This document shows positions 1-45,367 of a stretch of 64,000 nucleotides of DNA, in pieces. The notes under the pieces were generated by a model. That model made no database searches and was not told the origin of the DNA. It saw only the letters and a program-made list of their open reading frames with translations. The DNA comes from Dehalococcoidia bacterium (lineage in GTDB: Bacteria; Chloroflexota; Dehalococcoidia; Bin125): contig OZ253456.1 in NCBI GenBank assembly GCA_965261225.1, positions 1,190,099 to 1,254,098 of the forward strand, given 5' to 3'. Each line of letters opens with the position of its first letter. The stretch's first letter is position 1. The translations under genes were made by a program, and so were the position numbers.

Positions 1-1265
1 GCATTGTCGTCCAGACGGCCAAGTTTGCTTTCATTCGGGCGCCGGTCAAAGCCCCAGTATCCCTGCGTGTTCCTGTTGTTCCATCTACCAACGTTCATCG
101 TCGATTGCCAGATCGCGGTCGTGCCCATGCCGTATTCCGACCAGGAGCCGGCCCGGGTGTCGTCCTCCGAGCGGACCCTCACCTGATAGTTGACATCGGG
201 CTGCAGGCTCGCGATTGTCGTCGTCGTGTCCTGGACACCCTGTGGGCCGTCAGTCCAGGCGGTCTGATCGATAGTGCGGTATTGCAGGTCATATGCGGTG
301 ATCGTCGAAACGGATTCGGTGGGCGCCGTCCAACGCACGGTCAACGCGGTTTGGCCCGCGTCGAACACCGTCGGAGTCTCGGGCGCCGGGGGCGCGCCGC
401 TCTGCTCGTCAATGTCTATCAGCGTCACTGTGATGTCGGCCGAGGTGTTGTTGACGCCGTCGCTGACTTGCACGGTGATGTTGTATATACCACCCGCGCC
501 GTCGTCGTCGGGCGCTTCAAAGTCCTTCGCCTGCGTAAACATCAATGCGCCGCTCGAACTCAGAATGAAGTGGGACTGATCGGCGGCGCCGGTCAGCGCC
601 CAGATCAAGTCTGTAAAATCGGTGTCAGAATCGGTGGCGGAATCGGTGGCGGAACAATTGAACACGCCGACGATTCCCTCAGCAACTGTGAGGGCACTTG
701 CGGTGTTGATCTGCGGGACCGTGCTGTCTGGCACGGTTGAACTCTCCGGCGCGGTCGGTGTTTCCGGCTCGGAGTCCAGTTGCGTGACCAGATCGGTCAA
801 CGGAGCATTAGCCGGATCGGTTACGGGTACGGGGACCGGCTGGGTGACCGGCTGGGTGACAGGCTGGGTGACAGGCTCCGGCGCTGGAGTTTCGCTCACC
901 GTCCCCGTGGTCGTCGTGGACCAGGGTCCGCTCCACGGTCCGTTTCCCGGACCCCCGGTTTCGTATCGGGCGCGCATCCGGATCTTGATGGTCGCTGCCT
1001 CGGTCAGCCCGGTGAGTGTGATCGACGTCGTCACGCCCTCGGGATACTCATTCCCGCGGTCGGCTGCATTATCGGCTTTGAAGGATTGGTACTTGAGACT
1101 CTCTTCGGCCCAGCTAATCCGGTAGTCCGATGGCGCCGGTTCAGGCAAATCCCAGGCGATAGTGAGTTCACCCGGGTTCTCGCTACTGAGCCGAAGGTTT
1201 TCGATGGACCCAGGGGGCGTCGATCCCGTAGCCGGGGCGGCCAGGACGACGAGCATCGCCGTCAT
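1..1265 (-). CDS. Secreted/surface protein with fibronectin type III-like domains (partial; 3' end lies beyond window start)
   Basis: The reverse-strand reading frame is open from about 1334 down to position 1 and has no listed stop because it runs off the window. The translation begins MTAMLVVLAAPATGSTPPGSIENLRLSSENPGELTIAWDLPEPAPSDYRISWAEESLKYQSF... and shows FN3-like beta-sandwich periodicity and Pro/Thr-rich linkers (PVTQPVTQPVTQPV). The first ATG is at 1265 and overlaps the stop of a 99-aa upstream ORF as TGATG, so the exact start is uncertain. Confidence 0.55.
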   Translation of the reverse strand, partial: MTAMLVVLAAPATGSTPPGSIENLRLSSENPGELTIAWDLPEPAPSDYRISWAEESLKYQSFKADNAADRGNEYPEGVTTSITLTGLTEAATIKIRMRARYETGGPGNGPWSGPWSTTTTGTVSETPAPEPVTQPVTQPVTQPVPVPVTDPANAPLTDLVTQLDSEPETPTAPESSTVPDSTVPQINTASALTVAEGIVGVFNCSATDSATDSDTDFTDLIWALTGAADQSHFILSSSGALMFTQAKDFEAPDDDGAGGIYNITVQVSDGVNNTSADITVTLIDIDEQSGAPPAPETPTVFDAGQTALTVRWTAPTESVSTITAYDLQYRTIDQTAWTDGPQGVQDTTTTIASLQPDVNYQVRVRSEDDTRAGSWSEYGMGTTAIWQSTMNVGRWNNRNTQGYWGFDRRPNESKLGRLDDN

Positions 1266-1794
1266 CAGCGCAGTGATCGCGGCGAGGGCCAGAACGCGGA
1301 CCGGCCGAATCGAACGACCAGGTTGCCGTAGTGCCTACCTGTCGCGATGCCCCATAACTTCGACAAGGCGTGTGGGAGAAACCAAACTACGGCGAGTGCG
1401 ACAGCAACCAGTTTCATGGCGGCCCTGCTTCCAACCATGCCGAAGCCGCCATGCAATCGAAGATGTCGGCAATCGCCACCGAAACGGTGGAGATTGATTG
1501 CATAGCGACACGACGACAGACGACTTCGCCGCAAGCAGCGCGCTGCGCTTCGCGACCAAGCCAAACTTGGTGGGTGCTACGAGAACGCCGAATGCGCTCT
1601 CGCCAGCTGCTGACGCGCCCTCAACGGGCGGCGCCAGCGCCGTTCTCTCAATCAGTGCCGCGGCCAGCCACACGGCGAACTCCCAGTTCCGAATCGACCA
1701 GGTGTTATGCGCTGCCGACACTGACGCCGCTCCCTCTCTAGTTCTTGTGTCCTCGCTGAATGAAGCGTGGAACGAGTGTCCTCTCAGAGAATTC

Positions 1795-3733: not shown

Positions 3734-6700
3734 CTAGTTGGGGCTGGCGAAGACGCCGATGGCCAGTGGATTCCTGCCCGACACCGTTACCCAACCCCGG
3801 TTCTCTGGTGAGGACGTGTAGTGCCTGGATTTGGTCTGGTCGCCGATACTCCAACCAGCCGCTCCCGATGTGTCCTCGCTGTTCGAGTTGGACTCAGCGA
3901 CGCGGTAGAACGAGTTCGGGTGTTCGCTCAGCGACCTGAACACGATCCAGTACTTCGTGCTCGCCTCAAGCGTCACGCCCGCGCACGTCCCGGCGTACAT
4001 CTCGTCCGGCCAGTCTCCGGTCAACCGTATCAGCCCCGTCTCGTAGCCCGTGAGCCGTTCGAGCTGGCAGAGCTCAGTGCCGGGGCGGTTGGCGGTGGTG
4101 TTGCTGTAGATGGCGACCTGGGGCGCCGCGCGCGTCGGCACGAGCTGCACGGCGGTCACGAGAAGATCGGCACCCACGTAATGCGCGGGTTCATCGGCCA
4201 ATTCGGGGTTTTCGTCGTCGTCCACGCGCACCGCCACTTTGCCAATCACCTCGCTGTAGCCGCCGCCGTTAGCGGTGTGCACCAGCGTGACATCGTCGTC
4301 CGTGCTGTCGGTATCCTCCGCGCTGCTCACTGTCACCGTCTGCGCCTGGTCCCAGGTCGATGAGGTGAAGGTCAGCGAGGCCGGGGCCACGCTGACGTCC
4401 GTGTCCGCGGCGCCGGTGATGACCACCGTCACGTCGGCCGAGGGCCGCGTGCTCAGCTCGACGGTATAGTTCACGCTGAGCCCTTCGACTACCGTCAGCG
4501 TCCTGTCATCGACGACGATGCTGTAGGCCGGGGTCCCAATAGCAACGTTGGCGCCGACAACGCCGGTGATCGTGGCGGTACCCACCCGGGCGGAACGGCG
4601 GCCCATGCTGATGTAGGCCGCGAGCTTGTCCAGCGTGTAGCCCGCGGCATGCGAACCGGTGGTGAAGTCGATCGCCATCTCCTTGACGTGCCCGGTCAAG
4701 CCGTCTTCGGTCAGGTGGCCGACGTTGTAAAACTTAAGACTGTTGTTGGCCCGCTGTCGCAGGTTGCTCACCATGAGCCGCAGCTCCGGCAGTTTGCTGA
4801 GCGTGACCGTGTAGGGGCCGGTGTAGCGGTTCCTGTCTTCTTCGCGGTTCAAGTCGTTGTCCGACTCGACCTGCACGTACATGGTCGAGGTGCCCACCGC
4901 GACCGGCCAGAAGTCGAGCACGGCGTGGCCGTCGTAGTTGTTGTCCCACAGGTCGCCTCGGGCCACCGCCGGCCGGCCCATCGTCGACGAGAAGATATCG
5001 AGCGAACCACCAACCACGTTCGCGCCGAGGAAGTCCACCTCGAGGCGATACTGGCGGTAATGCTCCAGGCCATCGATCCTGAACCAGTCTCTGTCCGAGG
5101 CGTCATCCAGCGTGCCGATCGAGTACTCTCCGAGCCGGACCCGCCCCGGCGTCGCTTCGGAAGCCGGGAAGTCCTGTCCGAGCTGTTCGGCCTGTTCGGC
5201 CCGGCCGAGTGGCGCCACTCTACCTTTCAGGCCGAACTTGACTTCGCCGCCGAAGGACCAGCCGGGAAGGCTCCCCGTATCCATCTCCGTGGCAGTCGTT
5301 GGACGGAAGTACGTTCGCCTGTTAACTCCTTTGCGGTCGTAATCCTGATCACGAACCTGGAACTGGACCCAGTACTTGGTGGACGGGAACAGGAACACGT
5401 CCAGGTACTCAAAGGTGAAGTCATGGTCCTGAAGGAGTGCCCCCTACCCGGCCCAGCTCTGCCAGTTTCACTCCCGGACTGCCGCCCTTGTCCGTCCACA
5501 GGGACACGATGAGAAAGTCGTTCCCGTTGAAGGCCCTGAAACTGAAGCTGTTAACCAAGAACCCCGATCCACCCGGATCGGTTGTGAACGACTGCCGGAA
5601 TCGAACTTCAGCGGAGGTAAGGGTGTTGGCAGGCGTAATCTTCGCGTTCGGCTTGCCCAGGTTGCTGGCCAACGTCACGATCGGGTTGTCGTTGAACGAC
5701 AGGATCCGGTTCTCGTCAACCGCTTGCTGCTGCTCTGCGATCAGTGGTTCTTCGGGTTCCGGGGTCGGAAGGCTCGTCACCCGTGGCGCGGGCAGGGTGG
5801 TGACGTTGCCGGTCGACTGCGGCCCGGCGCCAGGCTGCGCGTGCCCGGGGTCGGGCCGGAACCGGACTTACCGGGCTTGGCCTCAGCGCTCGGCGACGGC
5901 GTCGGTGACGGCGTCGTGGTGCTCGCGGACACCGACGGCGCTCCCTCGCCGGCCGCGCTGAGCGCCACCACGGCGTAGACGTAGGTCGTCAAAGGACTCA
6001 CGCTGGCATCCACATAGCTCGTCGCCGTGCTGCCCGTGTCGGTCGCGATTACCGAGAGCGACACGGCGTCAGTCCCTCGCAGGATCCGGTAGCCGCTGAT
6101 CGCGCTGTGCGCCGGCGCCGTCCAGGACAGCGTCACGCTGCCGCCGGTGTGAACGTCAAGCGGGACCACTGTTCCCGACTCTCGTCCGACCACTCCGTCC
6201 CCGCGACGACGGCGCCGGAGGCGTCATGCACCGACTCGACGATCGGCGCCAGCAAGGTGCAGTCAACACCCGGCGTGCCCAACACCTGGATCCGGTAGGC
6301 GTGCCCGGCCGTCAAGTCCGCCGCGAACCAGTCCGTGTCCCACAGGGCGGTGCTTTCGGTCAGCCGCCCGCGGGCCGCCTGGTCGAGGGCAACCACCCCG
6401 GTCGTGTCGCCGGTCCCGGGTAGATCACCCGCGGCCGGCTCGGAGCGGCTCTGGCCGCTTCGCCCACTGCTCAACGGCACGGTGTCCGGCGTCGTCTCGG
6501 GTTCGGTCTCGGATGGCGTAATGGGATCGGTCACAGGTGGCGTCACCGGTTCGGTCGCAGGTTCGATCACCGGCGTCGTGACGGGCTGCGCCGTTGGCGC
6601 CGGCGTCGGCCTGGTCAGCGCCAGCACGAATCGGTCGCCCGCGCCGATCCTCGTCAGGATCGCGCGTCCCGTCGTCGGCACGTTGAAGTTCACGTAACCG

Positions 6701-7210
6701 CCGCCGACCGTCTCGACGTCGTTCGCCGCAAAGCTGGTCGTGCCGCTATCGGTCTGTACCCACACCGTCAGGTCGACGCCCGCTCCTGACACGCCGAAAT
6801 AGGCGCGCAGCACCAGGGGGCCGTGGTCATTCAGCCGCAGCAGAGACCCATTGCGGTTGGGGACCATCACCCGCACGATCTTCGAATCGGCGCTCAGGTT
6901 GACGTCGCCCTCAAGCAGCGAACCCGTCGCGCCCCAGCGCGAATCGGCTGCCGTATAGAGGGTCTTGGCCCCACCCGCCGTAAACGAGGCGAGCGCCACC
7001 GCCTGCAATCCGTTCTGGTCGAAATCGGCGACCCGTGAGCGAACTGATCTGAGCCTCCGCCAACCCGTTGCCGCTCAGCGATGCGACGGCGAGCCATCCG
7101 ATCAGGACCAGAGCCAGAATGCCGGCAAGCCGCACGAGGCGACGCCGCGGCCGCTTGGCGGCCGGAGACGCCTGGACGTATGTTGTCGTTGATCGCTCGA
7201 TCTGGCTCAT
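3734..7210 (-). pseudogene. Large secreted surface protein (signal anchor, FN3 domain, PT-rich linker, PPC-like and Ig-like/cadherin-like domains) split over at least 4 reading-frame segments
   Basis: The collinear minus-strand ORFs are 6911-7210 (N-terminal RPRRRLVRLAGILALVLIGWLAVA signal anchor), 6133-7008, 5777-6193 (FN3: VTLSWTAPAHSAISGYRILRG...TYVYAVVAL), 5421-5780 and 3734-5398 (PPC-like DWFRIDGLEHYRQYRLEV and SLTFTSSTWDQAQTVTVSS...DDDVTLVH repeat). They overlap by 4 to 98 nt in different frames. The same region in two frames (LVYGGWGQD versus AGGAKTLYTAADSRWG) indicates frameshifts rather than separate genes. Confidence 0.5.
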
Positions 7211-10622: not shown

Positions 10623-13600
10623 TCACTGAGCACCTGCAACGACAACCGCACTGCTGGCCAACCAGCGTCCGCTGGCCACGTGAGCTGGAAGGAAGCGAGA
10701 AGGCGGCAGCTGCAGGTCACCCCAGGCGCTGCCAGGTACACGAGCCTGTAATGCGAACTCCATCCTTCCATCTGACCGCGGACGAGCCGCGATTCGGATC
10801 TCGATGCTGACCTGGGCAGTCGTCAACGAGAGCGGCGAGCTCGCCAACCAAACGTCGACGACGGCATTCGTAGGCATGAACCGCGCTTCCGGACTCAGCG
10901 AGACGCCCCAGGAGCCATCTGGTGCGCGCTCCTGTAGCGCGAACTCGGTTCGGCCATCGGCCAAGCGACGAGCCACGATTCGCACTTCGTAGAGGGCCTC
11001 CGCGTTGACGGCCTGCGCGGCGACTGTCACTCGCACGCGAACCGGCGATGTCTCCAGTTCGCCGTCTGAGGCGGTGAGACTGAACGATGCTTCGCCTGCG
11101 GCAACCGGCGCGACAGTGACGACGCCGTTGGCCAGTTCAACCCTGATCTCGTCCGACGAGTCGGGCGCGACCAGCGAGTGTTCGAGTTGGTCGCCGTCGG
11201 GGTCGGAGAAGAACTGGGACAGCGTGAGGCGCGCTGACTCTGCATTGGCCGTCAGAGACAGCGCGGGTATTGCGTTCCCGACCGGCGGCTGATTGGGAAC
11301 TGTCTCGGGCAAGGTGACGCGGTACGTTCTCGCCCGGCTGCCATCCGCTGATGTTACGGTCGCCGCTACAGTGGCCGCCTCGCCGAGCGTGACTTGATGT
11401 CCGTTCTCTGCGTCGCCGTCCCACTTGACAGGTTCCACGGCGATCGTCGCCGACTCCTGAGTAGCTGTTGCCTCGACGATGCTTGAAGTGGCTTCGTCGG
11501 TGGCAGTTGCCTGGTAATCCAGTTTGCTCGGGGAGAACTCTCCGATGTCAATGTCGCTGAGCGAGAGTGAGGCGAGAGCAGCCTGGATGGCGTCGGGGAT
11601 GTTGTACGTGTTGACCCTGTCGTCCTCGGCGTCGACGACATACAGAACATCGCCGTTGGGCCAGATGCCGCGAGCATCGCCGTTCCCCGCTTTGATCAAG
11701 ACACGGAACCCGAATTCTTCTGCTTCGAGTCGTGCCAAGGTCTGATCTTCGATTCGGTAGGCGAAGATTCGGTTGGCGCCGTCATCTGAGACCCAGATGG
11801 ACACTCCATCCGACCAGATGCCGCGCGGGCTCTTGTTCAGGCTGTGGAGCGCATGCTCAGCGTCCAATTCCGCAGTCTCCAGGTTGTAGACGAACAATGC
11901 GTCTTTGACACTGTCAAGCACGTAGAGCGTTTCACCATCCGACCAGATGCCACGCGGATCGCGGTTGCGTTCAGCCAGTTCGATGTCGCGATCTTCCAGC
12001 CGTGATCCATCGGACAGTTCGTAGGCAAACAATGAGTCCCGACCGGCGTCGGCGATCCAGACGGTTTCTCCATCCGACCAGATGCCGTGCGAGAATCGGT
12101 TTCGCGAATCGAGCTCAACCTCGCGGGCTTCCTGGCGGTCCCCGGTCAGCAGGTCATAGGCGAACACTGAGTCGGATCCGATTGACGGGTTGTTGAGGAT
12201 CCAGAGCGTGGTTCGATCGGACCAGATGTCCGTCGGGTTGTCGTTGTCACGGTGCAGGTCGTCGATGTCCCGTGTGAGGTTGCAGTCAAAGTCCTCGTCA
12301 GAAGGCAAACGAACCGGAGCCGCGCCGCCTCCACCACCACCACCGCCACCGCCGCCGCCAGCCGTAGTAGTCCCGGAGCGACCAGTGCGGCCGGGACCGG
12401 CCACGAACTGGCCCGTGTATCGTGCCGCAGGTCCTTGAATGACGTTGATCGTCACCGTAGTCACGGCCTGCCTGTTGTCTCCGTCTGTTGCTGTGACCGT
12501 GAACGTGTGCGTGGGTTCCCGGGCAGCGTCTAGCGTGGCTGTCATAGAGACCCTGATCTGGCCGGTGTGCTGGTCGATTAAGAACTCACTGCAGATACTC
12601 CGGCTGTAGGTCAGCGCGTCGCCGTCGACATCCGTGGCCACAACCGGGACGCCGACTGGGTCGTTGTGACGAGCGCGTTCGGAGACTGTGCGAGTTGCAG
12701 TTTCCGATGCGAATACCGGCGGGTCGTTCCCAGGGGCAACGAGCACCTTGATGGTCCCTGTGTCTGAGAGTCCAACCTGATCGGTCAGCCGATAAGTGAA
12801 GTGGTCCTGACCGAAGAAGTTCGCCCTGGGCGTGTACGTCAAATGGGTCTGGACTGGCTGGTCCTGCTGGTCTGGCTGGTCTGGCTGGTCTGGTGCTGCG
12901 GTCACTTTCCCATTAGGCGGCTGTGTGAACGTTAGAGAAGGTGATTCGTTGTCGGGATCACCGCCCAGCGGTAGGTCGATTCGTAACTCTTCGTCCTCAT
13001 TCGTCGTTACCCATTGTTCAACCGCCACCGGCCGTTCATTGACATCCTCAACGTGAACTTCGAACTGCAGGCCTGTGCCCTCATGACGGTCGTCAACGGC
13101 GTTGACCGTGAAGTAGTGAACACCAATCAACTCGTGGTCCAGCATTGCACCCTGGGCGATCCGGACCTGGCGCGAGCGCGAATCGATGACAAATTCTGCA
13201 TTGTCGCTGACCGTGTAATAAACGGAGTCGCCGTCGCTGTCGGTGGCCTCGGGTACCGTGGTGACGACAGTACCCGCCGGGGCGTCCTCGCGAATCATAA
13301 TCTCGATCTTGGTATTGTCGGCGCATGGTATCTCGGCATTGAAGACCGGTGCGGTGTTTGGGTCGGAGCCCTTCGCACCGACACGGGTCGGCGAAACTGC
13401 CTGAAGTGTCTCCGCGCCGTGCCGATCCGTGTACGTCACAGTGACGCGGAGGAACTGATTCACGTCCTCGATCAACGGGGTGATTCTGGAACCGTTGTTG
13501 CTCAGTGCGACGCTGCCCAGCGCGGGCGTCCAGGGTCCGCCCGAATTAGTGGCCAGTTCCCAGGACCATTCGGCGCTTCCGATGATCATATCGGGCTCGT

Positions 13601-13754
13601 TCAATTCAGCCCGGTACATAGCACCTACGCGCGGCCGCCAGGGAGCAAGAGTCAGCGTTCCCGGCTCTGCCACATCAGTCAGGGTGACGATCAGGCTACG
13701 CTCAACGGGCCTATTCCTTTCTCGTGGTGGGCTGCCGTCAGAAACCTGGACCAT
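10623..13754 (-). CDS. Giant adhesin-like protein, C-terminal segment: cadherin repeats, (Gly)11 linker, 5-bladed beta-propeller (GIWSDG blades), cadherin-like beta-sandwich domain, C-terminal RIAAR/GRWLASS repeats
   Basis: The 1043-aa ORF carries cadherin-type repeats (VYYTVSDNAEFVIDSRSRQVRIA...VNERPV), a GGGGGGGGGGG run, five blades of about 45 aa each (PRGIWSDGETLYVLDSVKDALFVYNL...), the pattern LSLSDIDIGEFSPSKLDYQAT...TYRVTL, and about 45-aa repeats at the end (IRIAARPRSDGRMEFALQARVPGSAWG...GRWLASS). Its start overlaps the stop of 13754-15664 as TGATG. Confidence 0.65.
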   Translation of the reverse strand: MVQVSDGSPPRERNRPVERSLIVTLTDVAEPGTLTLAPWRPRVGAMYRAELNEPDMIIGSAEWSWELATNSGGPWTPALGSVALSNNGSRITPLIEDVNQFLRVTVTYTDRHGAETLQAVSPTRVGAKGSDPNTAPVFNAEIPCADNTKIEIMIREDAPAGTVVTTVPEATDSDGDSVYYTVSDNAEFVIDSRSRQVRIAQGAMLDHELIGVHYFTVNAVDDRHEGTGLQFEVHVEDVNERPVAVEQWVTTNEDEELRIDLPLGGDPDNESPSLTFTQPPNGKVTAAPDQPDQPDQQDQPVQTHLTYTPRANFFGQDHFTYRLTDQVGLSDTGTIKVLVAPGNDPPVFASETATRTVSERARHNDPVGVPVVATDVDGDALTYSRSICSEFLIDQHTGQIRVSMTATLDAAREPTHTFTVTATDGDNRQAVTTVTINVIQGPAARYTGQFVAGPGRTGRSGTTTAGGGGGGGGGGGGAAPVRLPSDEDFDCNLTRDIDDLHRDNDNPTDIWSDRTTLWILNNPSIGSDSVFAYDLLTGDRQEAREVELDSRNRFSHGIWSDGETVWIADAGRDSLFAYELSDGSRLEDRDIELAERNRDPRGIWSDGETLYVLDSVKDALFVYNLETAELDAEHALHSLNKSPRGIWSDGVSIWVSDDGANRIFAYRIEDQTLARLEAEEFGFRVLIKAGNGDARGIWPNGDVLYVVDAEDDRVNTYNIPDAIQAALASLSLSDIDIGEFSPSKLDYQATATDEATSSIVEATATQESATIAVEPVKWDGDAENGHQVTLGEAATVAATVTSADGSRARTYRVTLPETVPNQPPVGNAIPALSLTANAESARLTLSQFFSDPDGDQLEHSLVAPDSSDEIRVELANGVVTVAPVAAGEASFSLTASDGELETSPVRVRVTVAAQAVNAEALYEVRIVARRLADGRTEFALQERAPDGSWGVSLSPEARFMPTNAVVDVWLASSPLSLTTAQVSIEIRIAARPRSDGRMEFALQARVPGSAWGDLQLPPSRFLPAHVASGRWLASSAVVVAGAQ

Positions 13755-15664
13755 CAGATTTCGGCTCGTGTCCTCTTCAAAACATTCAGCGGACGTTCAG
13801 CAAACAGGTCCGCTCGCTGCTCGGCCCCTGAAGACCTCGCTCGCGGACGAAGCGCGAAGCCATTGATCTCATGTGTGCTTAGTGTCCAGATGAGATCAGA
13901 ACCGAGATCGTCAGTGACGACTAACCTGCCTACCAGCCCCGTCCAATTCTCGTCGATCGTCCAGGCTGGCGGATGTGTCATGGCTGGCGGCTGTGTCATG
14001 ACGGGTGTCTCGTTGACATCGGTCACTACGAATCCGATCGGTCGACTGACCGTATGCGTACTGTCCGACGCCTGCAGCGTGACGACGTACGTGTTGTCGC
14101 GGTTGGCATCCCCTGGATTCTCGTAGTTATGCCCATACAGCTTGACTAGCGCTCCCGTCTTCACGTTCATCGGGTCTGGCGTGAACTCGAAACTGTCCGC
14201 ATCGGCTCCGGCGAGAGACCAGGTGATGGTCCCCGACTCGGGATCGGTGGCGTCATAGTCGCCGACTGCCGTACTGGTCGCGGATTCGTCCTCATCGACA
14301 ATGACGAGCACCGGCCCCGTGATCAGCGGCGGCTCGTTAACATTGGTCACGTTGATCGTTACTGCCAGGGTCGTGGTCTTGTTTGCGTCGTCCACGGCTT
14401 TGATTGTGACCCGATGCTCATCCTGTTTCTCGTAATCCACGCCGATCCGGAACGCCAGCACGCCACTTCGGCTTAGCGTGAACTTGCCCGAGTCCCTGCC
14501 CTCCAGGGACAGCGTCACATTCATCCGTCGCTCGGGGTCGTAGGCGGCATACTGAGCAGGTGCGTCATCGCGATCTTCGGCGTAGTCCACTTCCGTGGGT
14601 CCAATGATCACCGGAGGTTCATCGACATCAATGACTTTAATGATGAATGTAATTTCGTTGTCTGTGGTGCTTGAGCTGGCGCCTCCAGAATCAAGTCCAT
14701 CGCTGACAGCCAGACCTACTGTGTACTGGCTGCTGTTCTCATAATCGATCTCGCCGTTCGTGCCAACGGTAATCCTGGCGCTGTTGCCAGCAATGACCAG
14801 CGTGAGACCAGCTTCATCCACATACTGGTCAGGGTAATAGAAGAAATCGAACGGATCCGCGTCCGGATCCGTGGCGCTCACTGTGGCTACGGTTGTTCCG
14901 GGTAGCGTGCCTTCACGAACGCTAAACACGCTCGGTCGTTGCGTGAAATATGCGTTCCGGCTGCTGATCGTCGTACGGACCGCGTCGGTGGGCGGGGATG
15001 CTATGATCTTTCCAGATCCGCTGCCGTCGCTATAGGTGGCAACTGCTCGCAGGTACTGCCCCACGTCGGAATCGGGATCGCCATCGATCTGAACAGGCGT
15101 GTAGCGCGCCGACTGAGCCCCGCTAATCGGCGTGAAGCCAGAGTACTTGTTCGTGGATCGTTCCCACTGCCAAGTCACGTCACGGACGTTGCCGTCGGCA
15201 TCAGTGAGCGAAGCGGACAGGCTGCTGCCGATCACTGGAGTATTGGTCGACAGGCGGACGATGCCGTCTTCCTCGTTGTTCGAAATTGTGAACGTCAGGT
15301 CAACCGAATCGTCGATGCTTGGGTCGAACGATCCAGAGGCGTCGAGATTGTCGGTGACATGAACGGTGACGGAGTACGACCTTCTCGTTTCGTGATCGAT
15401 CTGCGTGTTGTCGCGGACCAGGATATCTCCGCTACGTGAGATGAGCGTGAACGCCCTCGAGAATACGGCCGCATCTCGACCCGTCACGCTGTAGTCGAGA
15501 GTGTCGCCGTCGGAATTGTCTGCGGCCAGGGTCAGGATCAGCTCACCGTTTCGATGTGGCACTTTGTTGATTGAGCGTTCGACTTCGGCATCGGAGAACG
15601 ATGGGTCGGTGTTTAGCTCCGCGGTGCGGATGGCGAGGCGGATGACTGCAGGAGACCCGGTCAC
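13754..15664 (-). CDS. Giant adhesin-like protein, middle segment (cadherin repeats); frame differs from the flanking segments
   Basis: The 636-aa ORF shows cadherin repeat signatures (VDEPPVI, VNEPPLITGP, YDATDPESGTITWSL). It is collinear with 15984-17612 upstream and 10623-13754 downstream but in another frame. Confidence 0.6.
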   Translation of the reverse strand: MTGSPAVIRLAIRTAELNTDPSFSDAEVERSINKVPHRNGELILTLAADNSDGDTLDYSVTGRDAAVFSRAFTLISRSGDILVRDNTQIDHETRRSYSVTVHVTDNLDASGSFDPSIDDSVDLTFTISNNEEDGIVRLSTNTPVIGSSLSASLTDADGNVRDVTWQWERSTNKYSGFTPISGAQSARYTPVQIDGDPDSDVGQYLRAVATYSDGSGSGKIIASPPTDAVRTTISSRNAYFTQRPSVFSVREGTLPGTTVATVSATDPDADPFDFFYYPDQYVDEAGLTLVIAGNSARITVGTNGEIDYENSSQYTVGLAVSDGLDSGGASSSTTDNEITFIIKVIDVDEPPVIIGPTEVDYAEDRDDAPAQYAAYDPERRMNVTLSLEGRDSGKFTLSRSGVLAFRIGVDYEKQDEHRVTIKAVDDANKTTTLAVTINVTNVNEPPLITGPVLVIVDEDESATSTAVGDYDATDPESGTITWSLAGADADSFEFTPDPMNVKTGALVKLYGHNYENPGDANRDNTYVVTLQASDSTHTVSRPIGFVVTDVNETPVMTQPPAMTHPPAWTIDENWTGLVGRLVVTDDLGSDLIWTLSTHEINGFALRPRARSSGAEQRADLFAERPLNVLKRTRAEI

Positions 15665-15983
15665 CTCGGTCCAGGCTACCCACGCCGCTCAGCACACGCA
15701 GGCGGCTGGTCGTATCGGGACGGTCGTCCGAGCCGTTGGGCCAGATCACGAACTGCGGTCTGGATCCTACGACAGTTTCAGCCGCGAATCGAACGGCCAG
15801 CAGCACTACTTGGCTACTGCCGGTGGTGAACGAAACAGCATGGCGCGTGTTGCCGGTTGCGGAGTAAGCCTGCGCCGGATCGGAGGTCTGGCTCAGATTG
15901 CCGACCGCGTAGCTGGCGGTACTACCGACGATCATCAAAGGCAGACTGGTGACGCTGTCCGGGACATCCGCGTCATCGGTGTA

Positions 15984-17612
15984 TCAAACCCGGACCTTGA
16001 ACTGCTTCCCCACGTCAGCGGCCTGGATCGCATAGGTCGCTGCGGTGGCGGTATTGATGTTGGACTCGCTGCGACCGTTGACACGTATCCACTGGTAGGT
16101 AAAGCCTGGGGTCGTCAGGCCATCCGTGTCGCTGATCGGCGACGTATCCACCTGCGCAGTTGTCCCCGGTTCCAGCACACCGGTGATGCGAGGTTGCCCG
16201 ACAGGTCGCGTATTGGTCTCCAGGTCGACACGCACGACATCGTTAACCATCCAGGTCACCCCGGAAACGGTCCACCTCAGCCTCGTGTTGGCCACGTTGG
16301 CGTCCCAGGCTCCCAGCTTCTTGCTCCCGACGCGGAGAGCGACGGTGTTCAGGAATTCGGCCGCTGGCGGGCTCTCGAAATCGATGTCGAGCATGTTCGA
16401 GCTCCTCAGCGCCAGGTTCCTGATGAAGTTGTTCTCGTCTCCAAACTCGAATGTCCGATTCGAAAGCGTCCCCGTGATTGAAGTCAACGCGTCGCTGTAG
16501 CCCTGGACGTTGGTTTCTACTTGCTTCACGGTCAGGCTGCTGCAGAAGGTGAGCTCGCAACCCGCCGTTGAGCCGTCCACCTTCTGGCCTGTGCCTGCCT
16601 CTACCGCGTTGGACGCGATGTCGATCCGGTCCCCCCCGGCGGACTTGACTTCAAGCGTGGACGCCGCGTTGGCGTTGATCGTGAATCCATCCGAATCGGT
16701 GTTGCCGGCCCTCACCACGTGGCGCAAGAGCGCGCGTGTTTCGTCGCGACTGCCCACATACTCGGCCCGAGCGGAACCGGATGGGAACGTCAGACCGATG
16801 TGTCCTCCCGAGACCACGACATTGCTGCTGAATGTCAGTTGCAGCTCGATGTTCTCCCCTGCCTTGTACGTATCGCCTGACAGCGGCGTGGATGAGACTA
16901 CGACCTCGGTAACGGTGATGATCGCTCTGGTGAACAACGCAAGTCGTACGTTCCCCGCTGCCGTGGTCCATGAGCCTCCGCTGAGCCTGCTCGCTGCATC
17001 GTCGCCGATTGTCCACATGCTCGATGAGGTCTGGTTATCCGACGTTGTGTGACCGACACTCAGGTCCCCGGCGCCAAATTCCTTCTGAACAACGACCCAG
17101 TACGTCGTGTTGGCCGCCAACTCGCAGGTAGCGCCGGAGCACTCAAAGTCCTCTGCGGTTGTCAGGTTGGCGTCTATGGCCGAGGGCGCGTTGAGCGTGG
17201 CGACGGGTACTCCAGGCGTAGCCCCGCTGTTGCTGTAGATCCAGGCGCCGACATCTACGTCGGCTCCTGCCGATATCCGCAACTGGACGTTGTCGAGGAA
17301 GTGAATGTCGTTCCCGGTCGTGAACGACTGTGCAATGAGCTGTCGGTTGGCAATCGCATGGCTGCCGTCTCCGGCGTCCGTCTCCGACAAGTTGCTGACC
17401 ACGGGACTGGGCGTCTGGGCCACGGAAGGAGTTGGCGGAGCGCTGGCGAACAGGGCTCCGAGGAACACGAACAGCACGCCCCCCAACAGCCGCAGAGGCC
17501 GTCCCGTTCTCCTGCCCGGAGGAGAACGCAAAGCGGCATTCAGGGACCTCGCCACCAGTTGGAGAAGCTCAAGGCGAGACAGTGACATGTGGATAATCTT
17601 CACTAGTCCCAC
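15984..17612 (-). CDS. Giant adhesin-like protein, N-terminal segment with signal peptide; ends at an in-frame TGA (15984-15986)
   Basis: The 542-aa ORF has an N-terminal signal (LLGGVLFVFLGALFASAPPTPSVAQ), the motif VSNLSETD...AQSFTTGN, and an Ig-like repeat ending FTYQWIRVNG...KQFKVRV. The same frame reopens just after the TGA (ORF 15543-15938, TASYAV...) with the same repeat family. Confidence 0.6.
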   Translation of the reverse strand: MGLVKIIHMSLSRLELLQLVARSLNAALRSPPGRRTGRPLRLLGGVLFVFLGALFASAPPTPSVAQTPSPVVSNLSETDAGDGSHAIANRQLIAQSFTTGNDIHFLDNVQLRISAGADVDVGAWIYSNSGATPGVPVATLNAPSAIDANLTTAEDFECSGATCELAANTTYWVVVQKEFGAGDLSVGHTTSDNQTSSSMWTIGDDAASRLSGGSWTTAAGNVRLALFTRAIITVTEVVVSSTPLSGDTYKAGENIELQLTFSSNVVVSGGHIGLTFPSGSARAEYVGSRDETRALLRHVVRAGNTDSDGFTINANAASTLEVKSAGGDRIDIASNAVEAGTGQKVDGSTAGCELTFCSSLTVKQVETNVQGYSDALTSITGTLSNRTFEFGDENNFIRNLALRSSNMLDIDFESPPAAEFLNTVALRVGSKKLGAWDANVANTRLRWTVSGVTWMVNDVVRVDLETNTRPVGQPRITGVLEPGTTAQVDTSPISDTDGLTTPGFTYQWIRVNGRSESNINTATAATYAIQAADVGKQFKVRV

Positions 17613-38139: not shown

Positions 38140-41100
38140 CTACCCGTCCGGTCCGACGACGGTAAACTCCAACCCGTTGGAGAGCTTCCTGCCGTCACCG
38201 GTGCAGATGGCCCCCTGGTCGTCGCAGTCATTGGTGACGGGAAGGACGATGGTCACGTTCCCGTTGGCGTGCGGTTGCACAGTGATTCGCCACTGGATGT
38301 TGCTAGGCTTTTCCACCCGCTGCGCTTTCTTCACCGTTCCCCCAGTCACCGTGAACGCATCAAACTTCAGGTTCCTGAAGCTCAGCGCGACCTCCTCGCT
38401 GAAGCGGATTTCGAACGTGAATACGTCAGTGCCGTTGTGAATAGTGGGATTGTTCTCCAAGCTGACGGTCAGCGGGATGAGAGCCGCCGTCACCGCGTCC
38501 GTTGCGGCGCTGGTCAAAGACTCCGCGTTGCTCCGGTCGTCGATGAAGTTCACCCGTACCTGAATGGTCTGTCCCTGCTCGCTGGACGTGAGGGTGTAGG
38601 CGGAGCCCGTGGCTCCGGCGATGTCCGACCCACCGGCAACCCACTGGTAGGTGAAGGTGGCGCCAACGAGCCCGTCAGCGTCAGCGATGCCGGAGGTGTT
38701 CGCCGTCAACGTCTCGCCAACCTGGGCGGTGCCGATGATTGTCGGCGCTGCGGTGGCGGGGCTGTTGGGCGCGGCGTCTACTGCTGCCGTCGCCGCGCTG
38801 GTCAGCGTCTCCCCGTTGTCGGCGTCGTCGGTAAAGGACACCTTAACCTTGATGGTCCTGCCCTCGTCGTCGGCAGCCAGGGAGTAGGTAGAGCCCGTCG
38901 CGCTTGTGATGTCCGAGTCCGAGCTACCGTCGTTTCTTATCCACTGGTAGCTGAAGGACACGTTGCTCAGCCCGTCGGCGTCGGCGATGGCAGAGGTGTC
39001 CGCCGTCAATGTCTCCCCGACCTGGGCAGCGCCGCTGATGGCGAGAGCCCCGGTGGCCGGGCTGTTGGCTACCTGTTGCTGGACAGCAAAGCTGACCGAA
39101 TCCGTCGCCGCGCTGGTCAGGGATTCTGCGTACCCGCCCCTGTCGGTGAAGGCGACCCGGACCTTGACGATCTTTCCCTCGTCGGCTGCAACCAAGATGT
39201 AGGTAGAGTCGGTTGCGCCCGTGATGTCAGCGTCTGCGCTCCCATCGTTGGTTACCCATTGGAACCGGAACTGCACCTGGTCCAGACCGTTTCCGTCCTC
39301 TATTCCCGTCGTATCGGCGGTGAAGCTCTCTCCGACCTGCGCCGTGCCATTGATGACAGGCGCGCCACTGGCCGTCACGTTGTCCGGCCTGGCCTGTTTG
39401 CCCAACGAAGATTGGTTCGTGGAGCCCACTTGCCTGAAATCGGACCAATCCGAGGAGCTGTGAGCGTTTCTGGCACGTACCTGGAACCAGTGCGTGGAGC
39501 CGGGGTCCAGTTTGCTGATGATGCCCCCCGCCCCGTAGAACGCGATCTCAACGCCGTCTCCCGGCAGGTCCATCCACTGGCCGTTCCGGAACAGCTGCAC
39601 GTCGTAGGAATCGGCCCCCGGCACATCGTTCCACTCCAGGTCTACGCCCCCGACGAAGACCGCAGTCCCGACCGGCCGATCCGGAGTGTCCGGAGCGCTG
39701 ACCGGCGGCGGCGGCGGTCCGGCTATCTGCAGGGCGGGAGCAACCGTCAGAGTCCCTCCGTCCGCGGTGCAAAGCGCCCCCACCTCGGTACACGCCCGGT
39801 TCAGCGGCGTGAGTATCGACACCGGCCCGTTCCCCGAGGGCTGAAGCGTCAGATCCCAGAGGGTCTTGAGTCCTTCCACCTGCTCTGCGCCGGTCACCGT
39901 CCCACCGAACACCGTCAACGCGTGGTCGCGCATGTCCTCGGGCGTTATCTCCACGTCCTCGCTGAAGGCCATCCGCAGCGTGAACGCGCTCGACCCGTCA
40001 TGGGACAACGGCGGGTTCTCGAAGGCTGCCATCAGTGGCTCGGCCGCGGTCGCCATGGACGCAGCGGCTTTGGTAATCCAGAGCTGGTACACCCTCCGAT
40101 CGAAGGCGGTATGCCCTTCGACTCTAGCGTTCGGGCCAATGACCCAGATCGACCTGTAGCGATTCTGTCTGCCCAACTTGAGGTCGAACCTGTCCATCTC
40201 GAGGTCGAACTGAACGCCGGCCAGGTCCGGGTCCTCGTCGATAGCATCCAGCCGGACCGTCTCGGTGCGCATCAGGCGCACGTCCGGGTCGGGTGAGTTC
40301 TTCTCCACAGACACCGTTACCGCGGTCGTGCCGGAGGACACCCTGATCTTGAAGGTGGCTGCATTCGTGCCCAGGTGAAAACCCGGTGTGAACGAGAGCA
40401 GCGTCCCGTTGACCGGCGTCACCGTGAGCGTCTTCAGTCTCACATCCGCCGCCGGGCCGCCGCCACCTTCTCCCCGACGGACCGTCACTCTGTAGGTCTT
40501 GGTCTCGTTGCCGTCCGCCGAGGTGACGGTCACCCTCCAGGTGGTGGAGCCTTCCGGCACGTCGAGCTTCGCCGTGGCGCCGCCGTCCCAGCGGTCGCCG
40601 GCGGTGAAGGTGCCGGCGGGACCGGTGACGACGACCGTGGCGCCCGTGGCGTAGGGCGCTGCCTGCATGGTCAGCTCACTGAAGGAGTGGCGCCCGTCGT
40701 AACTGTAGGTGTCTGACCCTATCCCGCCGAGCCAGATTCCGCCCTTCGTCGTGAGCCACAGCTTCGACAGCCGCGCATCGTCCTCCTTGCCCACCCAGCG
40801 CTTGATTTCCTGCCCCAACGCATCGCCGGCAGCGGTGCAGATGGGGTGGCCGGAGGAACTGCAGTCCAGGGTTTGCCGCACGCGGATGCGGACCGGATCC
40901 CCCGAGCTGGGCGTGATCGTCATCGTGAAGTTCCGCTTGCTGCTGCCCACCGCGGCGAGGTCGCTCTTGGTCCCGTTCTTGATCCCGACTGCCCCGTCGA
41001 GGTTGTCGATCGAGTCGTCGGAGATGTCCTTGTTGAACTTGAGCGTCACCGAGAACGCCGTGCTCCCGTCGTGGGACGACGGCAGGTTCTCGATCCGCCC

Positions 41101-42198
41101 ACTGAGTCCCCCGCCGCGGTCCACGATCACCGTGTAGACCTTCATGGTGCTGTCGTCCGGCGCCGTGACCTGCACGGTGAAGGTGTTGAGGCCGGGCGAG
41201 ACATCCCCATAAATCTCGTCTGCGTCCCCGGTGTCCTCTTGCGTGCTCCCGTCGGGACGGGTTACCACCAACTCGGCGCCGGCTTCGGTCGCCGTCGCAC
41301 TCAAGATAGCTACCGTGACTCCGCTGGGAACTCCGGCTGTGTACTGGGTCGTGTCCGGGGAGAATGCAGGGTCGAGGGGCGCGTTGTTCGTAATTACCAC
41401 ATCAGTTAAGTAGTCGACTCTGAGGCTTTTCAGCGTCGCATCGTCGGAGGCCATCACGGTCGCCTCCGACAGCTTGACCTCCACCGTATCCCCGACGCTC
41501 CAGCCCCTGCCGGTTTGAACGTCGAGAAATCCATCGCCCTCCGGATCGAGGAAATCGAAACTTCTGCTGCCCAGATCAAGGGTGTAGCCCGAGCCTGAGA
41601 GATCGCCGGTGTAGTACAACTCCAGATAAGTGCCATCGTGGGTGAGCTGGTTCACGGTGATGGGCGAGCCGTTGCGGGTGAATTCATTGGGCGTTAGCGC
41701 GCCATATGAAATGGAGAATGAAGTGGCGAACCCGGTAAAAGCGATTGAGGTTGGGTGCTGCCCGACCGTGAGCGTGGCGCACCAGAGGACGTCGCACTCC
41801 TGGGCCTGCGCCCGGGCCGGTAGGGCCAGGAGCGCGGCGAAGGCCACGAGCAGCAACACGGCCGATATCCGCCAACGTGCGAGAGAACCAACGCGGACGG
41901 ACCGGGCCAGCGCTGCGCCGAGGATGGTTCGGCTGGTCGCGCCGGACCGGGCCGCGTCAGCAGGCTCGGTTGGTGCGGACGCGCGAGGAAGAGCACCGCC
42001 GGACTTACGGGATGCCGCCGGAGGGTTGGCGGCGAGTGGCTCGTCCGCAATCGAAGATTCGTCCACAGCCGACGAGGAACGTTCACCTGACCGGCTGCGC
42101 CGCCAGCGGCTCAGCCCAGTCATGCCACGCCGCCGCCGCAGCGCGTCGAGAACGCGTGATTCGTAGGCGCTGTGCGGCTGCGCAGGCGCGTGCTTCAT
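38140..42198 (-). CDS. Giant adhesin-like surface protein (about 1350 aa) with an Arg-rich N-terminal leader plus hydrophobic anchor, cadherin-like beta-sandwich domains, an FN3 domain and Ig-like YQW repeats
   Basis: The listed ORF runs to 42327, but homology with the divergent paralog places the start at MKHAPAQ (42198). The leader is RWRRSRSGERSSS...RISAVLLLVAFAALLALPARAQAQ. Downstream features include the CDVLWCATLTVGQ motif, LKSLRVD...FSPD...YTA cadherin-like patterns, and three YSYQWIRNDGS...GATxSTY...VKVSFTDD repeats. Confidence 0.7.
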   Translation of the reverse strand: MKHAPAQPHSAYESRVLDALRRRRGMTGLSRWRRSRSGERSSSAVDESSIADEPLAANPPAASRKSGGALPRASAPTEPADAARSGATSRTILGAALARSVRVGSLARWRISAVLLLVAFAALLALPARAQAQECDVLWCATLTVGQHPTSIAFTGFATSFSISYGALTPNEFTRNGSPITVNQLTHDGTYLELYYTGDLSGSGYTLDLGSRSFDFLDPEGDGFLDVQTGRGWSVGDTVEVKLSEATVMASDDATLKSLRVDYLTDVVITNNAPLDPAFSPDTTQYTAGVPSGVTVAILSATATEAGAELVVTRPDGSTQEDTGDADEIYGDVSPGLNTFTVQVTAPDDSTMKVYTVIVDRGGGLSGRIENLPSSHDGSTAFSVTLKFNKDISDDSIDNLDGAVGIKNGTKSDLAAVGSSKRNFTMTITPSSGDPVRIRVRQTLDCSSSGHPICTAAGDALGQEIKRWVGKEDDARLSKLWLTTKGGIWLGGIGSDTYSYDGRHSFSELTMQAAPYATGATVVVTGPAGTFTAGDRWDGGATAKLDVPEGSTTWRVTVTSADGNETKTYRVTVRRGEGGGGPAADVRLKTLTVTPVNGTLLSFTPGFHLGTNAATFKIRVSSGTTAVTVSVEKNSPDPDVRLMRTETVRLDAIDEDPDLAGVQFDLEMDRFDLKLGRQNRYRSIWVIGPNARVEGHTAFDRRVYQLWITKAAASMATAAEPLMAAFENPPLSHDGSSAFTLRMAFSEDVEITPEDMRDHALTVFGGTVTGAEQVEGLKTLWDLTLQPSGNGPVSILTPLNRACTEVGALCTADGGTLTVAPALQIAGPPPPPVSAPDTPDRPVGTAVFVGGVDLEWNDVPGADSYDVQLFRNGQWMDLPGDGVEIAFYGAGGIISKLDPGSTHWFQVRARNAHSSSDWSDFRQVGSTNQSSLGKQARPDNVTASGAPVINGTAQVGESFTADTTGIEDGNGLDQVQFRFQWVTNDGSADADITGATDSTYILVAADEGKIVKVRVAFTDRGGYAESLTSAATDSVSFAVQQQVANSPATGALAISGAAQVGETLTADTSAIADADGLSNVSFSYQWIRNDGSSDSDITSATGSTYSLAADDEGRTIKVKVSFTDDADNGETLTSAATAAVDAAPNSPATAAPTIIGTAQVGETLTANTSGIADADGLVGATFTYQWVAGGSDIAGATGSAYTLTSSEQGQTIQVRVNFIDDRSNAESLTSAATDAVTAALIPLTVSLENNPTIHNGTDVFTFEIRFSEEVALSFRNLKFDAFTVTGGTVKKAQRVEKPSNIQWRITVQPHANGNVTIVLPVTNDCDDQGAICTGDGRKLSNGLEFTVVGPDG

Positions 42199-43880: not shown

Positions 43881-44972
43881 ATGAAGAACTACCCTGCGCT
43901 GTCGCCCAGCGCCAGTGATTCGCGTCTGTTTGATGCGCAGCGGAGCCGTGGCATACCGCGGTTGAGCTGGTGGCGGCGCAGCCGGCCGGGCGGACGTTCC
44001 TCGTCGGGGGCGGACGAAGCTTCGATCTCGGACGAACCGCTCGCCGCCAACCTTCCGGCGGCATCCGCTGAGCCAGGTGCCGGGTCTGTTTCCGGCGCGT
44101 CCGCACCGACTGAGCCTGCCGCCGCAGCCCGGAACGGCGCTGCCCGGTTCGGCGCGACCAGCCGAACCATCCTCGGCGCCGCCCGTGCCCGGTCCGTCCG
44201 CGTTGGCGCTCTCGCAGGTTGGCGGATATCGGCCGTGCTGCTGCTCGTGGCCTTCGCCGCGCTCCTGGCCCTGCCGGCGCAGGCGCAAACGGCGGGCACG
44301 CTGGTCTCGAATCTGGAGCAGACCGACACTTCCGGGTCCACTTCGCAGCTGGCACAGGCCTTCGACACCGGCTCGAACGCCGCTGGTTACGGGTTGACCA
44401 GCGTCACTCTCAGACTGGCCGGGGCAGAGCAAAATCCTGGCAGAGGCGCCCTGGTACGAATCACGCCAGCGACCAGCAGCGGCCCGGACTTGAGCGACTC
44501 GACCAAGATCATCACGCTAACCACTCCGACGTTGACGACGGACGCCGACAATGTATTCACCGCGCCTGCCGGCGCCACGTTGGACGCGGACAGCACCTAC
44601 ATGGTCGTGGTCACGAGCGCTGACGGCACTGACGGTAATCGATTTCCTGTGGGGCGGACCCGATCAACCGGAACGGACAGCGACAGCGATCCCGAGTGGG
44701 ACATTGCCGATACCAGGTTCTTTAGAGACGACAACACAGATACCTGGTCTACAAGCAGCACCCTTCTCCAGTTCAAGATATCGGGCACCGCCAGCGTCGG
44801 CCCCACCGAGGTCCCCAGTGACTGGAGCCTGATCCCCACCGGCCTGACCACCGGCGACCAGTTCCGGCTGATCTTCCTCTCCTCGACCAAGCGCGACGGC
44901 GAGGCCACCGACATCGCGACCTACAACAGCTTCATCCAGACCCGCGCCGCGGCCGGCCACACCGACAGCTAG
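43881..44972 (+). CDS. Giant adhesin-like protein 2, N-terminal segment (Arg-rich leader plus anchor, VSNLEQTD...AQAFDTG N-domain); ends at an in-frame TAG (44970-44972)
   Basis: The leader MKNYPALSPSAS...RWRRSRPGGRSSS...RISAVLLLVAFAALLALPAQAQ is about 65% identical to the leader of the 38140-42198 protein. The same frame reopens after the TAG (45048-45410, IYWLNGAKVADDYADFYDEDWDEE...). Confidence 0.6.
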   Translation: MKNYPALSPSASDSRLFDAQRSRGIPRLSWWRRSRPGGRSSSGADEASISDEPLAANLPAASAEPGAGSVSGASAPTEPAAAARNGAARFGATSRTILGAARARSVRVGALAGWRISAVLLLVAFAALLALPAQAQTAGTLVSNLEQTDTSGSTSQLAQAFDTGSNAAGYGLTSVTLRLAGAEQNPGRGALVRITPATSSGPDLSDSTKIITLTTPTLTTDADNVFTAPAGATLDADSTYMVVVTSADGTDGNRFPVGRTRSTGTDSDSDPEWDIADTRFFRDDNTDTWSTSSTLLQFKISGTASVGPTEVPSDWSLIPTGLTTGDQFRLIFLSSTKRDGEATDIATYNSFIQTRAAAGHTDS

Positions 44973-45367
44973 ACCTACAGCGCCGGCTTCAGCGTCGTCG
45001 GTTGCACCGCAGACGTCGACGCCCGCGACAACACCGGCACGATCGGCGTGGGCGTCCCGATCTACTGGCTCAACGGGGCCAAGGTCGCCGACGACTACGC
45101 GGATTTCTACGACGAGGACTGGGACGAGGAGCGCCACAACCAGAATAAGAACGAGTTAGGCGCCAACGGCCCCGACACCGGCAGCAGCGGCAACTACCCC
45201 CGCACCGGCTGCGACCACGACGGCACCGAGGCTTTCACCCCGGGCGGGTCTTCAGTGCCGCTCGGATCGACCGCTGACACCACGCGCGTTGGCCGTCCCA
45301 ACTCATCCACGAGCAGCGAGGGCCCCTCAGTAGCGGCACCCTCGCGGACTCCGACAAAAACCGCCCC

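Follow-up and report, generated by a model that had tools for sequence, protein, structure and literature searches.

Three giant adhesin-type genes of a Dehalococcoidia bacterium are very probably genuine pseudogenes

Are the interrupted giant adhesin genes of an uncultured Dehalococcoidia bacterium dead, or do they merely look broken? This question is raised by a stretch of 64,000 nucleotides from contig OZ253456.1 (assembly GCA_965261225.1, positions 1,190,099 to 1,254,098 of the forward strand), hereafter the window, to which all coordinates below refer unless another locus is named. The original prediction for this window was that all of its giant adhesin genes except one are interrupted by in-frame stops or frameshifts. 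Genuine pseudogenes, silent cassettes of a variation system, phase-variable homopolymer tracts and assembly errors were offered as explanations. The comparisons described here make it very probable that three of these genes are genuine pseudogenes of large adhesin-type proteins, in which lesions accumulated over time. The genes in question are as follows (ORF, open reading frame; aa, amino acids).

10623..17612, minus strand: adhesin gene A, very probably a pseudogene (ORFs, translations, Pfam and NCBIfam domains, single-gene orthologs)
3734..7210, minus strand: adhesin gene B, very probably a pseudogene, in five frame segments (frame map; alignment with intact homologs over four junctions)
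43881..53500, plus strand: adhesin gene D, very probably a pseudogene, in three pieces of 363, ~120 and 2710 codons (Pfam/NCBIfam; intact 3206-aa ortholog)
38140..42198, minus strand: adhesin gene C, intact (single ORF; sister ortholog of 1347 aa)
1..1330, minus strand: fifth adhesin-like gene (signal peptide, fn3, cadherin, fn3 and onwards), cut by the left edge of the window (tblastn, single frame from 1292 to 12)

The domain content of A, B and D, as called with Pfam and NCBIfam, provides a view of what these genes once encoded. Each starts with a signal peptide and has a choice-of-anchor R module at the N-terminus, followed by fn3, cadherin-type, Big_9 and Ig-like domains. The choice-of-anchor R modules were called with the NCBIfam model NF041539 at a cut-off of 30 bits, and the N-terminal ones scored 84.3 (A), 51.9 (B) and 84.6 bits (D); the name choice-of-anchor R denotes a domain without implying any function. 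Genes A and D further share an IWSDG-type propeller and C-terminal repeats. The three genes are predicted to encode large secreted or surface proteins, and adhesin is a reasonable label for this predicted function.

The genome that carries these genes could be compared with relatives at several distances. The closest species representatives, identified through sat/cysC, were OZ253471.1 (85% amino acid identity) and OZ244584.1 (83%), both recorded as 'MAG: Dehalococcoidia bacterium' (MAG, metagenome-assembled genome); the core region is 89% identical to OZ253471.1 at the nucleotide level. Much closer is a sister genome from another sample (ERZ25069191, ctg587100_16x_c, 3,636,229 bp, 16x coverage), represented by locus L083 on the A/B side and L084 on the C side, which is ~97% identical to the window across the A/B locus, that is, ~3% diverged. 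A 16.2-kb contig at 2x coverage (L081; ERZ25068833, ctg46824_2x_l) was assembled separately. Two relatives, L088 (a 2,442,452-bp contig) and L089 (a 2,652,355-bp contig), display 94.5-96% nucleotide identity to the gene A locus. For gene D, the comparators were a region of OZ253471.1 (L082) and three further copies of the island in which D resides (L085, L086 and L087). Judged by name alone, contigs of the form ctgN_coverage_c/l look like products of long-read metagenome assemblies. The window has a G+C content of ~63% and carries sulfotransferases, sat/cysC, cadherin and fn3 proteins, restriction-modification genes, insertion sequence (IS) elements and recombinases. Similar gene content is known from sponge-associated MAGs (PMC8163846). 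Together with the style of the records, this content suggests that the source genome is probably host- or sponge-associated.

Gene A comprises a signal peptide, choice-of-anchor R, Ig-like domains, a truncated second choice-of-anchor R, cadherin-type domains, a poly-Gly tract, an IWSDG beta-propeller and C-terminal repeats. With its frames joined it spans ~2330 codons, while its orthologs in L088 and L089 are single called genes of 2477 and 2569 aa, the latter stop-free over codons 1-971; the sequence of the two copies that was available for comparison spanned the first 971 (L089) and 650 (L088) codons. Three lesions separate the window copy from an open frame.

15984..15986, minus strand: nonsense TGA in A (TGA in the window and the sister; TCA, Ser, in L088 and L089)
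15668..15683, minus strand: junction of a 176-bp out-of-frame deletion in A (176-base gap relative to L088 and L089, in the window and the sister)
13779..13782, minus strand: TT insertion (T2 to T4) in A, within a cadherin-type domain (absent in the sister)

The in-frame TGA that had been predicted at 15984-15986 is present. It falls within an Ig-like repeat, where the window reads KVRV*YTDD and both relatives read KVQVSYTDD; Pfam matches that reach past this stop are weak. A frame change had also been placed near 15543-15664. The change is real, and that span is only the overlap of the two ORFs; the true junction lies at 15668-15683, where a 176-bp deletion removed 58 codons plus 2 bases between two CCTGGAC direct repeats (7 bp) and left one copy of the repeat, as is typical of slippage or of microhomology-mediated deletion. 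The deletion takes out the second half of the second choice-of-anchor R, the remnant of which matches profile positions 1-65 of 155, and a composite merging the frames on either side of it yielded no NCBIfam match. Likewise, the TGATG junction noted at 13754 exists and is merely the stop of a shifted frame, caused by the TT insertion at 13779-13782. The sister reads GAATG--TTGAAG at this site, keeping PLNVEED in frame within a 1461-aa ORF, and the 2x contig carries the same insertion as the window. A cadherin-type domain rebuilt across the insertion had no Pfam match, so the continuous ORF of the sister served as the reference. The sister has two lesions of its own in A, a -1 at window position ~15094 and a +1 at ~10714; the first ~480 bp of the gene cannot be aligned there, and a different IS lies upstream.

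Homolog searches with the repaired gene A, at full length or with the junction region, returned nothing above 36% identity over a long stretch and also missed the known window and sister clusters. This absence of close homologs is misleading: the intact orthologs were reached via neighbouring GMC oxidoreductase fragments. In the two nearest GTDB representatives, a contig scan anchored on sat/cysC found synteny conserved upstream and no adhesin A. Two length differences that keep the frame were also observed between window and sister in A: 12 bp, (GGT)4, in the poly-glycine tract (~12310-12350, 12 Gly codons of the form GGN), and 18 bp at ~13733.

Gene B encodes a signal peptide, an N-terminal domain, a PPC-like domain, fn3, choice-of-anchor R, a second PPC-like domain and a C-terminal choice-of-anchor R. 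Many intact homologs (1059-1481 aa, 63-79% identity) were recovered when the frame-joined protein served as query, and alignment with five of them mapped four lesions.

7031..7033, minus strand: extra G in B (ACGGGTC, G2 to G3), just past the signal peptide (homologs read an unbroken SSLTVADFDQ; sister identical to the window)
6136..6151, minus strand: junction of an out-of-frame deletion of ~56 codons in B (alignment; sister identical at the junction)
5820..5833, minus strand: junction of an out-of-frame deletion of ~90-105 codons in B (alignment; sister identical)
5440..5444, minus strand: extra G in B (G4 to G5), within choice-of-anchor R (sister has G4 and a continuous 678-aa ORF)

The expectation that B is split over at least four frames therefore held, with five frame segments produced by four lesions. 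Lost with the ~56 codons are a linker and the final part of the PPC-like domain: homologs keep TDGRYYISVVGE...GLSEVTGG between TFTPA and GGSVTLSW, a segment gone from B, and residues 375-430 of homolog P0139, which correspond to it, had no tblastn match. All five aligned homologs display an extra fn3 domain between ...TRSLAP and GAGPQSTG..., and this domain is wholly deleted in B. Removal of one G at 5440-5444 restores the split domain, which then matches NF041539 positions 1-129 with 46.5 bits. The 2x contig is the same as the window at this G5 run.

Gene D displays a long leader, a signal peptide, choice-of-anchor R, fn3 repeats, cadherin-like beta-sandwiches, a propeller and C-terminal repeats. 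Together with 6 kb downstream it is 97.0% identical at the nucleotide level to OZ253471.1, in which the ORF is intact and 3206 aa long. Other intact copies encode at least 3196 aa (L087, ~96-97% identity) and at least 2753 aa (L086, with an in-frame change only). Two lesions interrupt the window copy.

44970..44972, plus strand: nonsense TAG in D (CAG, Gln, in L082 and L087)
45329..45330, plus strand: GT insertion in D, net +2 (both bases missing from L082 and L087)

At the predicted TAG, which was confirmed, the window reads ...GACAGCTAGACC... where L082 and L087 read ...GACATCCAG[G/A]CC... A +2 shift had been expected near 45290-45370 at a homopolymer-rich site; the shift is there, as GT at 45329-45330, and it adjoins runs of C4 and A5 while lying outside any homopolymer. 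Besides these two lesions, the window and L082 differ in this gene by one indel of 3 bp, which is in frame. The GT insertion lies in a patch (45150-45400) that has ~30% mismatches, against ~3% elsewhere, relative to copies that are otherwise 97-100% identical. The patch retains the protein pattern (conserved G, C, NGTE and VGRPNSS). Because it is ~30% diverged and yet keeps this pattern, it looks like an imported divergent allele; no source for it turned up in any locus retrieved. A diversity-generating retroelement was considered as its source and dropped, since no reverse transcriptase was found among the ORFs and called genes examined and the patch carries an indel.

Gene D resides in a mobile island (42459-64000) that also encodes a tyrosine integrase, a helix-turn-helix regulator, a helicase, a DUF6094 methyltransferase, RadC, two SSB genes and a Rad52-type recombinase; island copies elsewhere additionally carry a DnaG-like primase. 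Homology to OZ253471.1 begins at window position 42459, just past the integrase stop codon, and the tyrosine recombinase at 42513-43646 is most simply read as the integrase of the D-carrying island. At least four other assemblies contain the island at 96-98% identity, while the core is 89% identical to OZ253471.1. This excess of island identity over core identity indicates recent horizontal spread. Apart from D, all island genes are intact in the window, with lengths that match those of the other copies. In L085, D is disrupted by frameshifts of another kind, a +1 at reference position 3654 and a -1 at 6544. The comparison indicates that the window lesions have inactivated D in this strain only, and that island copies elsewhere are mostly intact.

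Several observations show that the breaks in A and B are present beyond one assembly. The separately assembled 2x contig is 100.000% identical to window positions 3754-16504, a span of 12,751 bp that takes in all three A lesions and all four B lesions. Five lesions are common to the window and the sister (the TGA and the 176-bp deletion of A, and the B lesions at ~7032, ~6145 and ~5826), and two are particular to this strain (+TT at 13779-82 in A and +G at 5440-44 in B). For A, B and D alike, an intact full-length homolog aligns across the breaks, and the breaks fall in conserved domains (choice-of-anchor R, fn3, Ig-like or cadherin-like), not at gene boundaries. Collectively, these intact homologs, the partition of lesions into shared and strain-specific ones and the three large deletions bear out genuine pseudogenes among the explanations first proposed.

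The nature and the order of the lesions are consistent with gradual decay. Inactivation is shown to have proceeded by ordinary mutation: two nonsense substitutions, insertions of 1-2 bases and three out-of-frame internal deletions. The alignments indicate that the oldest lesions of A and B predate the split from the ~3%-diverged sister, and that after this split each lineage gained frameshifts of its own, +TT and +G in the window and -1 and +1 in the sister. What remains to be produced would be at most an N-terminal stub, of ~540 aa for A, 363 aa for D and, for B, ~60 aa before the frameshift. Since the downstream fragments lack a signal peptide, the adhesin function would be lost. Meanwhile, paralog C appears to hold its reading frame while its amino acid sequence changes quickly.

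The decay is also concentrated in these genes. Within A and B, window and sister differ by four frameshifting indels; in the flanking non-adhesin coding sequence compared, the only indels are of 1 bp and 6 bp, both in an IS630-like transposase. About 20 other window genes have counterparts of the same length in related loci and are uninterrupted save for transposase remnants; within the window, decay is confined to adhesins and transposases. Three of four adhesin genes are interrupted against ~1 of 22 others (hypergeometric p ~0.006), an enrichment that is partly explained by the length of the adhesin genes (3.5-9.6 kb). If first hits alone are counted, the enrichment over ~22 kb of other coding sequence is not significant.

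Some of the evidence weighs against the pseudogene interpretation. The independence of the 2x contig from the window's own assembly cannot be proved, and both D lesions were seen on one contig only. The ratio of non-synonymous to synonymous substitution rates (dN/dS; Nei-Gojobori, window versus sister) is 0.56 over A as a whole, with segments at 1.08, 0.17, 0.40 and 0.68, where ~1 would be expected of a gene long dead; the value of 0.40 belongs to a fragment of 636 codons (A3). Synonymous divergence is uneven, ranging from 0.02 to 0.07 along A and from 0 to 0.095 along the flanking genes, which suggests recombination tracts and so blurs the dating of the shared lesions. Moreover, the truncated products could still keep some function. 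As regards selection, tracts received from lineages with an intact A may account for the dN/dS shortfall of A. Flanking control genes score 0.06-0.56, and because intact gene C scores 0.91, dN/dS fails to tell dead from live copies here.

Could the breaks instead have arisen in the assembly, as consensus errors in long repetitive genes whose true sequences run uninterrupted? Change of homopolymer length is the commonest error in long-read consensus, and three of the lesions are such changes in short runs (G2-G3 at ~7032, G4-G5 at 5440-44, T2-T4 at 13779-82); the single contig behind the D lesions points the same way. However, the identity of the 2x contig extends to the homopolymer sites, and five of the lesions (the TGA and the 176-bp deletion of A, and three in B) are also carried by a ~3% different genome from a separate sample. 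Consensus errors do not typically take the form of nonsense substitutions, of a GT insertion or of deletions of 176 bp to ~300 bp, and ~20 neighbouring genes, as well as the repetitive 4-kb gene C, are free of frameshifts. Assembly error is therefore not supported for A and B, is unlikely for D, given a substitution and the GT insertion, and is highly improbable as a general account. Contingency loci toggled by homopolymer slippage would explain why T2/T4 and G4/G5 differ between two close strains. Such loci typically have tracts of ~7-8 or more bases, whereas the tracts at the lesions have only 3-5 (G3, G5, T4), Tandem Repeats Finder reported no repeat at any lesion site and the 2x contig has the same tract lengths as the window. 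Each gene also bears 2-4 lesions, including some that slippage could not reverse (nonsense codons, large out-of-frame deletions), which leaves the phase-variable homopolymers first suggested as an extremely unlikely cause. As to recoding, through readthrough of TGA and TAG combined with programmed frameshifting, nothing speaks for it beyond the presence of in-frame stops. TGA, TAG and TAA terminate 18 ordinary ORFs of the window, no tRNA gene (and so no suppressor tRNA) and no Rfam or SECIS-like match was found in the window, and orthologs have Ser and Gln codons at the stop positions. A G+C content of ~63% is unlike that of the lineages known to reassign TGA. We consider the probability of recoding negligible; selenocysteine at the TGA of A was considered and dropped, as the orthologs have Ser.

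The arrangement of C and D raises a different kind of explanation. The 5' leaders of these divergent genes (upstream region, an N-terminal extension of ~130 codons and signal peptide) form inverted repeats of ~600 bp, with arms at 41807-42400 and 43679-44287 (74% identity overall, 91% over 150 nt), and the arms flank the tyrosine recombinase gene at 42513-43646. The broken genes might be silent cassettes of a recombinational surface-variation system, or the recombinase might swap the 5' ends of C and D by inversion; in either case the mosaic patch of D (45150-45400) would attest to the import of allelic segments. Yet none of the broken genes is a promoterless partial copy, each having a start, a signal peptide and an N-terminal domain of its own. 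Outside the leader, no two adhesin genes are more alike than 71% over 824 bp, a level below what cassette-type gene conversion would need, and no near-identical blocks are shared between them. An inversion would not repair D, because the D lesions lie outside the inverted repeat; no inversion was seen in the three genomes compared (the window, the sister L084 and OZ253471.1, L082), in each of which the recombinase is oriented alike relative to its neighbours, and the recombinase resembles the integrase of the D island. Hence the silent cassettes of the original prediction are very unlikely. The fragments could also still work, either as split genes or as products truncated on purpose, such as secreted choice-of-anchor R modules from the N-terminus. 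In both A (542 aa) and D (363 aa) the first fragment retains the signal peptide and a complete choice-of-anchor R, the dN/dS of A3 is under the neutral value and the 2710-codon remainder of D is still open. The breaks, however, run through domains instead of between them, the downstream fragments have no signal peptide and go on acquiring frameshifts in sister lineages, intact single-ORF orthologs are the norm elsewhere, and a long open remainder is expected if D was inactivated recently; we regard such products as very improbable. At the position of D the sister genome carries a different, IS-disrupted adhesin. A very improbable reading is that C, D and the sister's adhesin mark an exchange hotspot around the recombinase, where islands would swap in modules with the ~600-bp leader and broken copies would serve as an archive for mosaic re-import, of which the 45150-45400 patch would be an instance. 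If true, this would mean population-level surface variation in an uncultured symbiont instead of plain decay.

Genuine pseudogenes thus remain the preferred explanation for A, B and D, and gene C provides the intact counterpart. It encodes the leader, a signal peptide, a cadherin-like beta-sandwich and Ig-like/ZirU-like domains. Compared with the sister copy (L084, 11419-15462), it shows in-frame indels only (12, 21 and 12 bp), and its dN/dS of 0.91 reflects 106 non-synonymous and 40 synonymous differences. This suggests fast or diversifying evolution at the protein level with the reading frame kept. The prediction had named 38140-42198 as the only intact gene, which holds among the four complete genes; the fifth, edge-cut gene is open over all ~440 of its visible codons.

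The fate of these genes is comparable to that of adhesins in host-restricted bacteria, in which large adhesins have been pseudogenised, among them shdA, ratB and sivH of Salmonella Typhi and inv and yadA of Yersinia pestis. As in those species, very long adhesin genes have been hit by nonsense mutations, small frameshifts, deletions and IS activity, with several lesions per gene and intact copies in close relatives. Unlike them, the present genes belong to uncultured Dehalococcoidia, are built of choice-of-anchor R, fn3, cadherin-like and propeller domains, and include one that is island cargo. Meanwhile, phase-variable adhesins such as Neisseria opa, Haemophilus hmw and Helicobacter sabA are simple-sequence contingency loci. 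The likeness to these lies in adhesin frameshifts of which some fall at short homopolymers of strain-variable length; the difference lies in tracts of 3-5 bases and in several lesions per gene, some of them irreversible. Surface variation is also brought about by cassette or inversion systems, among them Neisseria pilE/pilS, Borrelia vlsE and, through inversion between conserved 5' regions, Campylobacter fetus sapA. The shared ~600-bp inverted 5' region of the divergent C and D around a recombinase is reminiscent of these systems, as is the mosaic structure of D. Here, in contrast, there is no single expression site and there are no high-identity donors, orientation is constant in three genomes and the lesions lie outside the repeat. 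Of the choice-of-anchor R (NF041539) copies in the window, two are truncated or split by lesions.

Sponge-associated MAGs are enriched in cadherin and fibronectin-III 'attachment' genes, which are also transferred laterally among them (Robbins et al. 2021, PMC8163846), and sponge symbionts can be pseudogene-rich (PMC8546597). The present case is similar in its domain families, in lateral transfer (D island 97% versus core 89%) and in the gene decay that is ongoing in relatives. Those studies (PMC8163846, PMC8546597) count domains and do not report broken copies.

Decay in relatives also reaches other genes. L088 (9303-10681) and L089 (10001-11379) have in common a 1-bp deletion that splits their GMC oxidoreductase (window position 25725), and in L089 a +1 (window position 19418) splits sat/cysC (4045-6032). 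These loci indicate that gene decay in this clade is lineage-specific and goes beyond adhesins alone. The close relatives keep A and have lost the GMC oxidoreductase, and the reverse is seen in the window strain and the sister. For symbiont MAGs, host adhesion is inferred from how many cadherin/fn3 'attachment' domains they contain, and here three of the four complete giant adhesin genes are, very probably, dead. Since lineages lose different genes, domain counts overstate functional capacity, and the repertoire turns over quickly. For annotation, the A, B and D loci are best recorded as pseudogenes and not as strings of 'hypothetical' or 'cadherin' proteins. The case is one of ordinary gene loss, a known phenomenon that is unusually well documented here, and it brings no change to the present understanding of how such genes work.

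The neighbourhood of these genes displays further features. Between A and B lie tandem paralogous genes for multi-pass membrane proteins of ~255 aa (7479-8258, 8546-9313 and ~9550-10113); these repeats are 70-81% identical and have no Pfam or NCBIfam match, and the last of the three looks degraded. An IS5-like (DUF772) transposase remnant in several frames occupies 17711-18800, between A and sat/cysC. The minus-strand gene at 32791-36902 encodes a 1048-aa protein with an N6-methyltransferase and a Type ISP C-terminal specificity domain, in which neither a helicase nor a nuclease domain was detected; its final 4 nt overlap the start of a gene for a pentapeptide-repeat protein, and relative to the sister copy it displays a dS of 0.17 and a dN/dS of 0.08. 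An IS630-like (DDE_3) element is located at 37090-37980, with a 1-bp indel relative to its sister counterpart, and an 89%-identical partial copy of it adjoins A in the sister.

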